A DNA stretch of 64,000 nt from Octopus sinensis (Eukaryota): assembly GCF_006345805.1 (NCBI RefSeq), contig NC_043001.1:129022001-129086000 (forward strand). Direction: 5' to 3'. Positions 1,355 through 54,766 of this stretch are shown here, piece after piece. The position numbers were made by a program, and so were the translations under genes. The notes below the pieces were generated by a model. That model made no database searches and was not told where the DNA came from. It worked only from the letters and a program-made list of their open reading frames with translations. Each line of letters begins with the position of its first letter. Positions within the stretch are counted from its first letter, which is position 1.

Positions 1355-1402
1355 CTTGCCTGAGGAACCTATGCACCTACAGTTGAAACTCATAGTAGCA
1401 AG
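1355..1402 (+). ncRNA. Minimal type-I hammerhead ribozyme motif
   Basis: CTTGC-CTGAGGA-AC(ctatgcacctaca)GT-T-GAA-ACT(cat)AGT-A-GCAAG. Stem I is CTTGC/GCAAG, the CUGANGA and GAAA core is intact, and the cleavage triplet is GUA. Stem II is weak. Confidence 0.65.
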
Positions 1403-14632: not shown

Positions 14633-14889
14633 TATCTTACCACACACATCTGCGACTAATAATATGGTATGATTCGAAAGATAAATTTGAAGGTTGTGCC
14701 TTATTGTTATGCTAATAATCAGAATGACACTGGACTGTTTGATCAGGGTTGAGGTGTGAGAGTGGGGATTAACACAACAACAACAACCACTTTCTATATA
14801 CCATAGAACTACTTAGCTGTGGCTACACAACTACTACAGTTCTATGGTATGCAAGCTAATGAGATTGTTCTATTTGAGCATTAATTCTT

Positions 14890-15465
14890 TGGCAGAAACG
14901 CTTAGCAGTATTTCGTCTGTCGTTACGTTGTGAGTTCAAATTCCGCTGAGGTCGACTTTACCTTTCATCCTTTCGGGGTCGATAAATTAAGTACCAGTTA
15001 CGCACTGGGGTCGATGTAATCGACTTAATACCTATGTCTGTCCTTGTTTGTCCCCTCTATGTTTAGCCCCTTGTGGGTAATAAAGAAATAGGTATTTCGT
15101 CTGCCGCTACGCTCTGAGTTCAAATTCCGCCGAGGTCGACTTTACCTTTCATCCTTTCGGGGTCGATAAATTAAGTACCAGTTACGCACTGGGGTCGATG
15201 TATTCGACTTAATACCTATGTCTGTCCTTGTTTGTCCCCTCTATGTTTAGCCCCTTGTGGGTAATAAAGAAATAGGTATTTCGTCTGCCGCTACGCTCTG
15301 AGTTCAAATTCCGCCGAGGTCGACTTTACCTTTCATCCTTTTGGGGTCAATAAATTAAGTACCAGTTACACACTGGGGTCGATGTAATCGACTTAATACC
15401 TATGTCTGTCCTTGTTTGTCCCCTCTATGTTTAGCCCCTTGTGGGTAATAAAGAAATAGGTATTT
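14890..15465 (+). repeat. Head-to-tail trimer of the 184-bp family B SINE body
   Basis: gtattt unit starts at 14908, 15092, 15276 and 15460. The units are nearly identical. Confidence 0.95.
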
Positions 15466-16657: not shown

Positions 16658-17015
16658 TGAGGTGGTATTAAAATGTTCCTGGACTAGTTCTGTAGCGCAC
16701 CAACAGATGGCAGCACAGAGTTGTGTGAGCAGTGAGAGCAGGCAGGAACCTTCATGAAACAGTGTGCTGAGTTACATTGCAGTGTTTACATCACAAGTAG
16801 AGAATTTTGTGTTTTTGTGATCACGTGTATGCGGTAGTCTGCAATTTTGTTATGGACAGGAACAAAGAGCCAACGTGAAATTTTGCATTGAACTTGGGGA
16901 AGTCTGCTACAGAGACACTGAGCATGATTCAGCAAGCTTATGGGAATGAGGCAATGGGTCGTACACAATGTTTCGAGTGGCATGGGTGTTTCAAAAGTAG
17001 AAGAATATCCCTGAA
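16658..17015 (+). mobile_element. Mariner 5' remnant (TIR plus N-terminal HTH)
   Basis: TA followed by TIR tgaggtggtattaaaatgttcctggactagtt. Translates with a frameshift to EQRANVKFC..LGKSATETLSMIQQAYGNEAMGRTQCFEW. Confidence 0.85.
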
Positions 17016-18022
17016 TGAAGGCAGCAAGCTGGCAGAAATGTTAGCACGCTGGGCAAAATGCTTAGAAGTATTTCGTCTGCTGCTACGTTCTGAGTTCAAA
17101 TTCCACCGAGGTCGACTTTGCCTTTCATCCTTTCGGGGTTGATAAATTAAGTACCAGTTATGCACTGGTCCTCACTCATGAGTTTCTCATGAGTTGTGGT
17201 TGATGTTTAGCCCCCAGATGAATTCTCACCAAGCAGACTTATGATCAAAGACATTCTCAACATTTTCTTTTAAAAGTGACATATTTTGGACTACATTATT
17301 GAATAAGATATATCTGCTACTGTATAAAAATAGCATCTTTTTCTAATCATAATCTTTCAAAGAATTTTTCTTGTAATTCTAAAAGGTTGTCTTTACTCTG
17401 ATTTGCAACTGGTTTTTGGATTGTTTTAATCTGAAACTTTTAACATTAATGGGAAAATTGTCCAATTCATGCCATAATTATGTACTATAGTTATGATATA
17501 ATGAATTTGGAGCACTAATTATGTGGCCAGAGTTCAAATATAACCATGCACTTAATATGCTGCATTACTTTTTGGAAACAAAAACTGAAGAAGTGTATGC
17601 TGATGTATGGAGAAATAAAATATGATGTAAAAACTAATGTTTTGGGCTAGTGTCTTCATCCAATGTCTTTTTTCAATAAGTATCTTGCCTCAAATGTTAT
17701 CACTTCAATCACATCTCATAGTAGAACATTACTCACATCTAAATATATGTGTATTGTTCAACTGTGAGACGCTACTTTCATTGCTAACATTTACTGATAT
17801 GTATTGACTAACATGGACTGTTCTTCAGCCTGGACATCTTCTGTTCTGTCACTCCTGCATCTCCAGAATAAATTAATTATAAAATATTCTTTGACTTAAA
17901 ATTTTTGGTTTGCTTGAGTGACTTTTAGAAAATGATGTCTGTGAAATTGAATTCTTTTCTAGCTTTTATTCAAGTTTCATTGTAACAAAACAAAAGTTTT
18001 TTTTTTCTGCTGATAAATAATT

Positions 18023-19479: not shown

Positions 19480-19640
19480 ATATGCTTTATTTAAAAGCAG
19501 CAGAAAATTCAACAAAACCTGTTACTCTGAGTTTCACGTTCCCGTTCGTCGGACAGTTTTTGCTAGAATTCTAGCAAAAACTACCCGACGAACGGGAACA
19601 GGTTTTGTTGAATTTTCTGCTGCTTTTAAATAAAGTATAT
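19480..19640. repeat. Fold-back palindrome centred on gaattc (19566-19571) within (TA)n
   Basis: ctttatttaaaagcagcagaaaattcaacaaaacctgtt... is mirrored by ...aacaggttttgttgaattttctgctgcttttaaataaag. The right arm has a 17-nt deletion. Confidence 0.92.
19513..19562 (-). ncRNA. Minimal type-I hammerhead-like motif with a U4C core variant
   Basis: Minus strand: CAAAAACTGT-CCGACGA-ACG(GGAA)CGT-GAA-ACTC(A)GAGT-A-ACAGGTTTTG. All three stems pair, with a GUA triplet. Confidence 0.7.
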
Positions 19641-26349: not shown

Positions 26350-26745
26350 AATGTAAAGTATACTAGCCATCTCAATATGGCTAACCACTAAGGGTGGGTG
26401 TTACTGTAGCTTTTAGCCCCAGGAGATCATCGTCTCCAGCTGGCTTTAGGCACACTTTCTGTGCCCTTATGGTATTTGCAAAGGGAGGTCATCCTTCTCT
26501 CGTAAACCTAGGTGATATGCACGGACTGCAGTTTCCAGGTATTTGCCTGTCTTACGAGAGAAACTGCAGTCCATGCGTATCACTTAGGTTTACGAGAGAG
26601 GGATGACCTCCCTTTGCAAATACCATAAGGGCACAGAAAGTGTGCCTAAAGCCAGCTGGAGACGATGATCTCCTGGGGCTAAAAGCTACAGTAACACCCA
26701 CCCTTAGTGGTTAGCCATATTGAGATGGCTAGTATACTTTACGTT
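26350..26745. repeat. Near-perfect fold-back (~186-bp arms, 24-nt loop) in (TA)n
   Basis: 26350-26535 is the reverse complement of 26560-26745 with only a few substitutions. Confidence 0.97.
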
Positions 26746-31501: not shown

Positions 31502-32412
31502 TTCAGATGAGGAATAATTCATGAGCATTTCCTTCAAATTTAAAAATGCATGCAGAAATAAAACGCATTGGCAAAAAGTTTCATGTTATTTGAGAGAGAA
31601 GGTTTAGCTTGATAGGACAACATGTTTTGATTTTTAAAATTCTATTGATTTTAGTGTATTTTCTGATCATTAATATGGAATGTCAAGTGGACAAAACTGA
31701 GCATTTTCGACACTATTTGCTTTTTGCATTTGGTTGAGGAATCAAGTCCACCAAAGCAGCTTATAAGATTTATGCTGTTTATGGAGAAGGAGCAATGCCT
31801 CAGAGTACTGCCTGCCAATGGTTTTTGTGCTTCAGAAATGGGAACGTTAACCTCAAGGAAAGATCACATCAACCAACTGAGTTCAATGAAGAGCAACTGA
31901 ATCAATTTCTTCCCAAAAATCCACGTTAGACAACCAGGGAATTGATAGAGTAGATGGACTGTGATCAAACAACTGTGGTGAACCACCTTCACTCAATGGG
32001 CAAGGTTCACTCAATGGGCAAGGTTCGACGAACCTTGGTTGACTGGTGTGTGATCTGTCCTTGAGTTCAGAATTTCCATTTTTGAAGTGTGAAAACCAAC
32101 AGTGGGCAGTACCTTGAAGCATTGCTCCTTCTCCATGTACACCACAAATCTCACGAGCAGCTTCCTTAACACCTTAATTAAATGCAAAAAGCAAATGGTG
32201 TCGAAAATGCTCAGTGTTGTTCACTTGACATTCCATTTTAATGATCTGAAAATACACAAAAATCAACAGAATTAAAAAAAAATCAAAACACACTATCTTG
32301 TAGAGCAAGAAACTCTCTTTTAAATAACATAAAAACATTTTGCCAATGCGTTTTATTTCTGTGTGCATTTTTAAATTTGAAAGAAATGCTCATGAATTAT
32401 TCCTCATCCCAA
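31502..32412. mobile_element. Two mariner 5' halves in inverted, tail-to-tail orientation
   Basis: The TIR gatgaggaataattcatgagcattt is at both ends. The plus arm encodes MECQVDKTEHFRHYLLFAF...VYGEGAMPQSTACQWF..F.NGN...TVVNHLHSMGK. The minus arm encodes MECQVNNTEHFRHHLLFAFN...HCWFSHFKNGN. Confidence 0.9.
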
Positions 32413-41690: not shown

Positions 41691-41793
41691 AGATAGATAT
41701 CATTACTGACATGTAGGCCATAGATGCAAAATTGCTACTCTAATTTACATTATTTACAATTGATGAATATTTGTCCTCATCTTGTTTGTTGTT

Positions 41794-41839
41794 AACACAA
41801 CATTTCGGCTGATATACCGTCCAGCCTTCATCAGGTGTC
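41794..41839 (-). ncRNA. Minimal type-I hammerhead ribozyme motif (Penelope-like form)
   Basis: Minus strand: GACAC-CTGATGA-A-GGCTG(gacggtatat)CAGCC-GAA-ATGT-T-GTGTT. The core is intact with a 5-bp stem II. The minimal stem III ATGT is likely a CpG-decayed palindromic ACGT. Confidence 0.75.
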
Positions 41840-41929
41840 TTGAGGAAATTTCAAACCTGGGTTCTCATTCCTAAAGTATTTTTCGATGTTATTATTATTA
41901 TTATTATTATTATCATTATTATTATTATT

Positions 41930-49019: not shown

Positions 49020-49560
49020 ATATTTGTAGTCACCCATAATCCCAGAAACCATAACATCTTATATTCAGTTCCAATCCCATACCACTTGTCAAATCTCAGA
49101 AAAATAATTAAAGAATCACAAATTATCAAAAGGTGAAGACAACCACCAAATCTTAAAAGACAAAGGCAAAATTCTTATCAGAAAAAGAAATAACATACGT
49201 AACAAAATGTAGTGACTTTTAATTTTGAGCCACGTGAAGTAATGGAACAGAGCAAATTTTTTTTAAAAAATTGGTAAATTGGGAAGGAATTGCAAAACAA
49301 AAGATCTCATTTGCTATATCACATTCCCACAAGGCAATAAAAATTATATTGGCCAAACAGGATCAAAATTAACACATCAGTTTGGAACATATAAGCAACA
49401 AATCAAGGATTCATCTCTTATAAATGTGAACATTCTACATATTTGGGCAAATGGGAAATTTAAAATATTCCCTTTTTCTAAATAAAGGAAGAAAATGATC
49501 CACTATGAAAGACAAAACAAAAATACCTTATCAGAATTCAAAAACCAAAAATGAAGTAGA
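49020..49560 (+). pseudogene. Penelope-like element relic: RT-EN linker and GIY-YIG endonuclease
   Basis: FVVTHNP, RQPPNLKR and NCKTKDLICYITFPQGNKNYIGQTGSKL...KQQI...FKIFPF match the PLE GIY-YIG pattern. The relic is frameshifted. Confidence 0.85.
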
Positions 49561-49615
49561 AAGAGTCAACACTGTTATCAAAAGGAAGTTTCCTCTATAC
49601 AGATTACTCTATAAC

Positions 49616-52486: not shown

Positions 52487-52745
52487 TATATATGTATATA
52501 TATATATTTATAAATAAGGATAATATCGATATTTAAATATTGATCTTATCAAGTGGTCAGCATGGGAATAAATACCATACAAAGGTAATAATTATTTAAA
52601 ACTATAAATAAGGGTATCTGAGAGATATGACCATACCGAAGTAGCAGTCAAGACCCCGACTCCAAAAACCACCTTAGATGTTCATATCATGCCATGAGAT
52701 AAGACAGAGAGACAAAATAAACTAGTAAGAAAGATTTTACTGGAT

Positions 52746-52806
52746 AATTCAAGATCCTGGATTTCTGATTTTGCTTCAAATAAGCTCTGTCTTCGTCAGT
52801 TGAATT
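52746..52806 (-). ncRNA. Type-I hammerhead ribozyme motif with a canonical core
   Basis: Minus strand: AATTCAA-CTGACGA-(agacagagcttatttgaagcaaaatca)-GAA-ATCC(A)GGAT-C-TTGAATT. Perfect 7-bp stem I and an AUC triplet. Stem II is imperfect. Confidence 0.7.
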
Positions 52807-52931
52807 TGTCAGATGGGTACATAAATACAAATATATATGCAGAACATACGTTATACTTACATATACGAACGTCCTTACATACATATATATGCACGTATGT
52901 ACAAAACCAGTCCAAATTGCCCGCCATATGT

Positions 52932-53023
<92 letters not shown>

Positions 53024-53028
<5 letters not shown>

Positions 53029-53193
53029 ATAAAATAATATGTTACAATTACTCAATAGTCAAGATAAAACTCTGAGTTTCAGATGCCGAAGTGGAAATCT
53101 GAAGAGATGGTGTTGTGGATTTCCACTTCGGCATCTGAAACTCAGAGTTTTATCTTGACTATTGAGTTATTGTAACATATTATTTTATAGATA
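53024..53193. repeat. Fold-back (~76-bp arms, 18-nt loop) in (TA)n with a hammerhead core at the turn
   Basis: 53024-53099 pairs with 53118-53193. The plus strand 53099-53149 reads CTGAAGA-GATG...CATC-T-GAA-ACTC(A)GAGT-T. Confidence 0.9.
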
Positions 53194-53630
53194 AATTTCC
53201 TCTATTTACATAATATTGAGGTCTCTTTCTTTCTTTTGTTATCTTACCGTTTTTACCAATATATATATATACATATATACTTGTGGCAAACTATTTTCAG
53301 GATAGAGATGCAGGTAATGTTACAAATAACTTTCCCACATGTAAAAAGAAATGGTCTAAGACAGCATTAGGTATTGTGGCATCTCATAGTCAAATATGCA
53401 AAGCTATGGATATTAAGACTGCATTTTTATACCTTTAGGCTATAATGAAACTTTTAAAACATGTATACTGAGGCTTCAAAATCCTGGTATCAAATAATAA
53501 AGAAATTTGACTGGAATAAAAGAATAAGTTTGTATCAACATACATACCAATAAAAATTATGAATACACACACATACGTAATACACACGCATAAACATATA
53601 TATATATATATATATGAATACACACACATA

Positions 53631-53975: not shown

Positions 53976-53999
53976 TATATATATATATATATCAATATG

Positions 54000-54194
54000 A
54001 AATAATGAATTAAATAGAGAAATAACAATTGACAATCTAACAAGTTATTACATTATAATATAATATACTATAAAATGTAATATAACATAACTAATTTTTT
54101 AATCGTATCTTATATTTTATTGTTTATTATATTATATTATAATGTAAGAAATTGTTAATTGTCAATTGTTATTTCTCCATTTAATTTATTATTT
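54000..54194. repeat. Diverged AT-rich fold-back next to (TA)n
   Basis: aaataatgaattaaatagagaaataacaattgacaat pairs with attgtcaattgttatttctccatttaatttattattt. Confidence 0.85.
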
Positions 54195-54388
54195 GAAATT
54201 TGTATTTATACTCATATTTCTATGGTATTCAACTGCCGTACAAGTGAATTGGATATTCAACACCTCTTTGAAGGAACTGTCTTTTCCTTTCATTTGTTAT
54301 ATATAAATATATATAGACACACATACATACCTATAAAAATAAGTACACATACACACATACATACCTATAGAAATATATATATATATAT

Positions 54389-54672
54389 ATAAAAATAAGA
54401 AAAAAACACCTTTTATCAATTCAAAATGAACAATTAAATTATACCATCTAGAAAATTACATATAATAGAAATATTAAAATTAAAATAACAATATCAATAA
54501 TGTTATTCTACCAATTATATACGTTTTTATTATTTGTTTTGCAATTTACTTAATTATTGATATTTTATTGTTATTTCAATTTTAATATTTCTACTATATG
54601 CAATTTTCTAGATGGTGTAATTTAATTGTTCATTTTGAATTGATAAAAGGTGTTTTTTTTTCTAATTTTTAT
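54389..54672. repeat. AT-rich fold-back (~110-bp arms) in (TA)n
   Basis: aaaaaaacaccttttatcaattcaaaatgaacaattaaattataccatctagaaaatt pairs with aattttctagatggtgtaatttaattgttcattttgaattgataaaaggtgttttttt. Confidence 0.9.
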
Positions 54673-54766
54673 GTATATATATATTATATTGTGTGAAATT
54701 TGATTTAGTATTTCTAAATTAAATTTTTTTCCCCTGTAAGTTTGGATTAATATTCCCTCAAATAAT

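Follow-up and report, generated by a model that had tools for sequence, protein, structure and literature searches.

Minus-strand positions 52746–52806 of the 64,000-nucleotide stretch of DNA analysed here (the window) raise a two-part question: is the hammerhead-like motif found there genuine, and is its helix III—four base pairs around a single nucleotide—built for cleavage in tandem or dimeric transcripts, as an earlier note on this DNA had proposed? The elements from which that proposal started are all present on the minus strand: a 7 bp stem I, CTGACGA, GAA, ATCC-A-GGAT and C17. The type I motif was recovered by a descriptor match, and scores 19.8 bits (E 0.0026) under R1, a covariance model made from 24 metagenome rows. 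Stem I closes the ends of the motif, with the 5' arm (52800–52806) pairing with 52746–52752. The core CUGACGA occupies 52793–52799, the stem II region spans 27 bases (52766–52792), and the odd palindrome AUCC-A-GGAU that forms helix III lies at 52754–52762, centred on 52758. The core CUGANGA, GAAA and an NUH cleavage triplet are all found, and cleavage is predicted, from hammerhead numbering only, on the 3' side of C17 (52753), between 52752 and 52753.

The label "canonical core" given to this motif holds for the core, GAA and helix III; stem II, which had been left unmentioned, is broken in the window copy. An extra A stands on either side of the stem (52792 and 52766), giving A.A beside the core, followed by two pairs and then a C.A mismatch where the outer 3 bp (52789–52791 with 52767–52769) should form; beyond these lie a 3×3 internal loop, an inner helix of 4 bp and a 5-nt loop. 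Folding prediction yields no paired stem II for this copy (pairing probability of the outer stem at most 0.08). Because stem II has decayed, the window copy is probably inactive, whether as a monomer or as a dimer.

Could the motif simply be a chance match in repeat DNA? The window is AT-rich, microsatellite-rich and of animal type, the copy at 52746–52806 folds no better than its shuffles (z +1.16), and odd palindromes are common in themselves: those following GAAA are weakly enriched (nine observed and 4.8 expected, a count reached in 14/200 null windows; with a central A, five observed and 1.7 expected, 6/200). Scanning the window, and positions 52650–52900 on their own, against Rfam also gave no hammerhead match, and Rfam missed 5/6 intact PLE-type (Penelope-like element) controls too; miRNA matches in the same scan lay below gathering scores and were set aside as microsatellite or palindrome artefacts. 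Against a chance origin, none of 300 order-4 Markov windows matches the tight descriptor (stem I of at least 7, stem III of 4, loop of at most 1; chosen post hoc), and a looser one (stem I of at least 4, stem III of at least 2, loop of at most 4, strict core) finds two matches in the window versus a null mean of 0.023, with 1/300 Markov windows reaching this. Moreover, an independent model ranks four window sites first to fourth, and letters from related copies repair the structure (both below). In viral contigs the pattern gave noise: a scan with a degenerate form returned 120 loci, 33 of which were complementary, and the three with a stem I of at least four pairs were all non-complementary. 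A chance origin is largely refuted, and we consider it extremely improbable; the motif is genuine.

The motif sits within one copy of a non-coding repeat of ~430–470 bp (52505–52932, minus strand), bounded by (TA)n tracts at 52495–52506 and 52935–52962. Matching contigs number 1796 (X1), 2113 (X2), 1365 (X5) and 63 (X7) in four public runs, and the repeat is therefore high-copy. These runs come from relatives (share of sampled words at most 0.31), and X7 is RNA by guess only. Two points emerge from the recruited copies. Firstly, the damage to stem II is absent from the majority letters of the family. At 52790, 52769 and 52768, other letters dominate in the three large runs (98.7–99.8%, 74–92% and 81–89% of depth, respectively), and these majority letters restore the three outer stem II pairs; the family letter at 52767 gives G-C or G.U, such that G10.1-C/U11.1 with a paired stem II is present in the family (majority letters, unphased). 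Secondly, the perfect 7 bp stem I exists in the window copy, while its seventh pair does not belong to the family: position 52806 reads otherwise in 99.5–100% of depth (three runs), so that the family has a stem I of 6 bp, then a 3×3 loop and a distal helix. The 3' arm of that distal helix (52740–52743) pairs with 52809–52812, with 4 bp in family letters and 3 bp in the window copy. Given family letters, both stem I and stem II are predicted to fold at a probability of at least 0.85, and the motif as a whole folds modestly better than shuffles (z −1.26); these letters are per-column, unphased majorities from relatives, and in X2 the one at 52809 is in the minority (43%).

Among the 40 differences between copies that were listed (of 101), the invariant core bases, both helix III arms and the six stem I pairs are unhit. 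Variation is seen in loops II and III and at core position 7: the base at 52795 alternates between C and U (U in 41–48% of depth in the three large runs), and the one-base loop of helix III (52758) is G in 30–35% of depth. The search for tandem copies suggested by the earlier note was also productive, with head-to-tail joints going back 395 and 422 bases in X1 and X5 (single contigs); opposite-strand joints occur among the repeat contigs as well. The window itself holds a single copy. No match between the repeat and an RT or endonuclease was obtained, and a metagenome scan for the motif of this family itself returned 0 matches. The repeat is likely either a truncated PLE 3' end or a non-autonomous PLE derivative.

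The helix III design recurs in the window, as the earlier note had stated, in motifs that share no BLASTN similarity: each of the four sites represents a separate, unrelated repeat family. Model R1 ranks them first to fourth within the window; for the three ACTC sites, but not for 52746–52806, helix III was built into the model, and the ranking is circular in that part. The second family (19519–19556, minus strand; R1 E 1.4e-07) is a type I hammerhead with a 3 bp stem II and ACUC-A-GAGU. The ACTC-A-GAGT announced for this place is present (19524–19532, minus), and its core is the non-canonical CCGACGA (U4C). The motif sits in a head-to-head inverted repeat (19480–19640) between TA tracts. Its core carries A10.1-U11.1, and the left arm of the inverted repeat lacks exactly 17 bases bearing GAAA and helix III. 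The third (53099–53149, plus strand; R1 E 0.08) has the core, stem II and, at 53140–53148, the expected ACTC-A-GAGT. It is the right arm of a DNA palindrome (53021–53196) cut at the core, and for that reason it has no stem I. The fourth (1355–1402, plus strand; R1 E 2.5e-07) has a 5 bp stem I and an intact core; it was rightly suspected of decay, given that stem II is broken and that the inner pair of its ACTC-A-TAGT (1388–1396) is mismatched, leaving a predicted homodimer helix of −0.1 kcal/mol. Tracts of (TA)5 or longer lie within 330 nt on both sides of 3/4 window sites, versus 8.6% of random sites.

Several other features of the window were recorded. Positions 41791–41842 (minus strand) carry a minimal PLE hammerhead of the classical kind and of different design, with an extra A, 5 bp in stem II and a helix III of four bases, AUGU, that is likely a CpG-decayed ACGU; it has no flanking TA tracts. 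Four long DNA palindromes (358–751, 26350–26745, 53984–54210 and 54372–54690) each begin at a (TA)n tract and resemble head-to-head PLE ends; a relaxed descriptor finds no hammerhead in them. Positions 14858–15465 hold three tandem 184-base units of a dispersed repeat, in which R1 scores no hammerhead, and relics of Mos1-type transposase HTH domains occur at 16879–17139 (plus) and 31886–32173 (minus; Pfam HTH_48, E 5.2e-07 and 9.9e-10).

Beyond the window, a metagenome scan for the core plus GAAACTCAGAGT returned at least 119 loci and at least 124 matches from several unrelated families; at least 59 matches have stems I and II of at least three pairs each. In 5 among the 119 loci listed, an endonuclease C-terminus precedes the ACTC-A-GAGT hammerhead on one and the same strand, at a distance of 113–219 nt. 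Relatives of this endonuclease end with at least 650 residues (12 of 120) carry DKT, CxCx5C and YxDD in 12/12 cases and RWK in 11/12, and 11/12 have no cysteine between GIY and YIG. PMC8557442 describes such a set as the signature of the Hydra clade of PLEs, and we read it accordingly. Stems I and II covary across 24 motifs hand-picked among the 119 loci listed (0/500 shuffles reach the score); helix III is fixed by the search pattern, so that the result concerns these two stems. In two loci (L189:15–680, plus; L219:31–619, minus), tandem junctions run from an endonuclease end through a hammerhead to the start of the next ORF, an order that would place two hammerheads on one transcript. Five further loci (L135, L142, L161, L207 and L226) contain two opposite-strand matches within ~100 bases, a head-to-head layout like that of 53021–53196.

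These data bear on whether the family motif still has a function. It could be a fossil of an old Hydra-type element, cleaving in no form, while the repeat spreads, or once spread, without needing it. Each of the four window sites has suffered damage or truncation, one of them bears U4C, which lowers in vitro activity (PMC3088659), and stem II unusually has A.A at its base; Naiad PLEs, too, proliferate without hammerheads (PMC8557442). A fossil would not, on the other hand, be expected to vary across copies in a way that spares the core and the stems (as judged from 40 listed differences out of 101), nor does the covariation of stems I and II across the metagenome motifs favour it. We judge a fossil to be distinctly improbable.

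Which clade of PLEs gave rise to the repeat? No PLE protein remnant was found near the four window sites, either among about 84–88 frames compared with Pfam or with 22 Hydra-type proteins and their profile. Pfam reports no RT or GIY-YIG in 30 metagenome frames nor in seven full-length Hydra-type proteins; it is blind to the Hydra clade, and sequence motifs and BLAST were therefore used instead. The absence of an RT and GIY-YIG ORF beside the window copies is as expected for truncated copies. A weak, broken GIY-YIG-like relic lies at 49339–49583 (plus strand; tblastn E 0.096, profile E 0.11), ~3 kb from the 52746–52806 motif and on the opposite strand. The full Hydra ORF—RT and C-terminal GIY-YIG, with RWK, DKT and CxCx5C and without CCHH—was encountered only at the ACTC-A-GAGT metagenome loci. 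Because no PLE protein was found beside the window copies, the clade assignment draws solely on the design of the RNA and on its insertion target. The 52505–52932 copy combines insertion in (TA)n with a 9-base odd palindromic helix III, a trait read from a published table rather than a formal clade definition, and the tandem and inverted 5'-truncated arrangement typical of the clade is seen in the contig joints and in the palindromes 19480–19640 and 53021–53196. The repeat likely derives from a Hydra-clade Penelope-like element.

The published record also bears on helix III itself. File S2 of Craig et al. 2021 (PMC8557442) tabulates 25 Hydra-clade families in 26 rows (one family appears twice). 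By our own count of that file, helix III consists of 4 bp and a 1-nt loop in 16/25, is a 9-base 3+3+3 structure in 3/25 and has a 2-nt loop in 6/25. The arms include actc/gagt, acca/tggt, acac/gtgt, actt/aagt and acta/tagt, with ACTC-A-GAGT in Penelope-3_HM and ACCA-A-TGGT in the Octopus family Hydra-1_oBim. Both the sharing of the 4+1+4 design among families and the covariation of stem III claimed from the window are real, and are already in print for Hydra-clade PLEs. A Hydra motif, ACUA-U-UAGU, is likewise drawn in Fig. S3 of Cervera and De la Pena 2014 (PMC4209133), with a 3-nt loop. Our literature search found no paper discussing or testing the 4+1+4 design, a subject that Lunse et al. 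may cover. Three 10–11-base strings from the window sites were not found in the PMC8557442 supplement. The 52505–52932 repeat is a new family, whose U15.2-A16.2 pair is missing from the published Hydra-clade table.

Whether the design serves dimer cleavage turns on the energetics of helix III, for which we have nearest-neighbour estimates only. The helix is self-complementary, and the predicted AUCC-R-GGAU homodimer is stable (−7.6 kcal/mol with a central A, −9.9 with a central G). The earlier argument that a 1-nt loop is sterically unfavourable does not compel a dimer: opening the inner pair leaves 3 bp and a triloop at +2.1 to +2.4 kcal/mol, an energy equal to that of the canonical helix III of 2 bp and a tetraloop (+2.4) and far below the +6.0 of the 1 bp amphibian form. 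Hammerheads with 2 bp and a tetraloop are reported to cleave as monomers in invertebrates (PMC7229834), and a dimer is not forced, because the opened helix is as stable as this monomer-active design. The same element might, accordingly, carry a hammerhead that cleaves as a monomer, with 3 bp and a triloop in helix III and a contact between loops II and I, as in invertebrate retrozymes, the palindrome being a secondary trait. The 6 bp stem I, internal loop and distal helix of the family would suit this, as would the ~0.8 per min at which a coral retrozyme monomer cleaves (PMC7229834) and the U.U inner mismatch of three Hydra families (PMC8557442). A monomer has no need, however, of an inner pair that is kept complementary in 16/19 nine-base Hydra families by three pair types (C-G, A-U or U-A), and published work describes PLE hammerheads as cleaving weakly and as needing a dimer (PMC4209133, for a minimal one; PMC6765202). 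We consider monomer cleavage unlikely. Dimer cleavage is plausible because the inner pair covaries across families and yet cannot form in a monomer with a 1-nt loop; the nine-base families are related, and the 16 complementary inner pairs are not 16 independent events. The claim that these motifs are built for tandem or dimeric transcripts is thus upheld as to its plausibility for intact copies, with head-to-tail joints in two runs and a stable predicted homodimer, but not as to an obligate dimer.

Overall, we favour with reasonable confidence the explanation that 52746–52806, in its (TA)n-flanked repeat, is part of a defunct copy from a Hydra-derived element that favours cleavage as a dimer. 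The motif, the repeat family, the majority-restored stems and the tandem and inverted joints are observed. From these, a master copy may be transcribed through two units, and the two AUCC-R-GGAU palindromes are predicted to pair as one intermolecular helix III of 8 bp, with two purines mismatched at its centre; this pairing would complete both hammerhead cores. Cleavage after C17 would then, by analogy with the literature, free a unit-length RNA, which a Hydra-type RT/endonuclease acting in trans could reinsert into (TA)n. Intact copies would likely cut most efficiently with two tandem motifs pairing their 9-base palindromes, and the window copy would be a likely dead product of this cycle. 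A doubtful extension is that the odd palindrome acts as a two-state part, giving slow cutting as a triloop monomer and fast cutting as a mismatch-centred dimer, and also as a family barcode: no duplex is predicted between AUCC and ACUC. Were the barcode real, Penelope families sharing a genome could process their RNAs without mutual interference, and a transcript might be cut or poisoned in trans by dispersed copies of its own family.

The significance of the 52505–52932 family is modest. The 4+1+4 helix III may serve as an RNA marker for ORF-less Hydra-type fragments missed by Rfam, and an inner pair that covaries while being unformable in the monomer offers a clean test case for PLE hammerhead dimers.

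How does the family compare with known systems? Like Hydra-clade PLEs (PMC8557442), it has type I topology, a 9-base odd palindrome with a 1-nt centre, an extra base on each side of stem II (as in many families of the clade), a (TA)n target (as in almost all) and a position ~100–250 nt from the 3' end. It differs in that helix III starts with AU, where all 25 tabulated families have AC; in that the extra bases are A.A, rather than the U.U or G.C tabulated; and in a stem II with an internal loop; no linked ORF was found. With the minimal PLE hammerheads of PMC4209133, for which dimer cleavage was proposed, it shares CUGANGA-N, G10.1-C11.1, a palindromic helix III, dispersed single copies and inverted pairs. 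The typical minimal hammerhead has a 4-base even palindrome and no helix III of its own, whereas a monomer helix III of 3 bp is possible at 52746–52806. Animal non-LTR retrozymes (PMC7229834; bioRxiv 10.64898/2026.07.22.740005), proposed to be non-autonomous PLE derivatives, likewise have a non-coding unit, a few hundred bases long, that carries a type I hammerhead. They occur as monomers and some head-to-tail copies, an arrangement that the single-contig joints may reflect. No long tandem array of the 52505–52932 repeat was seen in the window or in the contigs analysed, and it resembles PLEs in its inverted joints and its (TA)n flanks.
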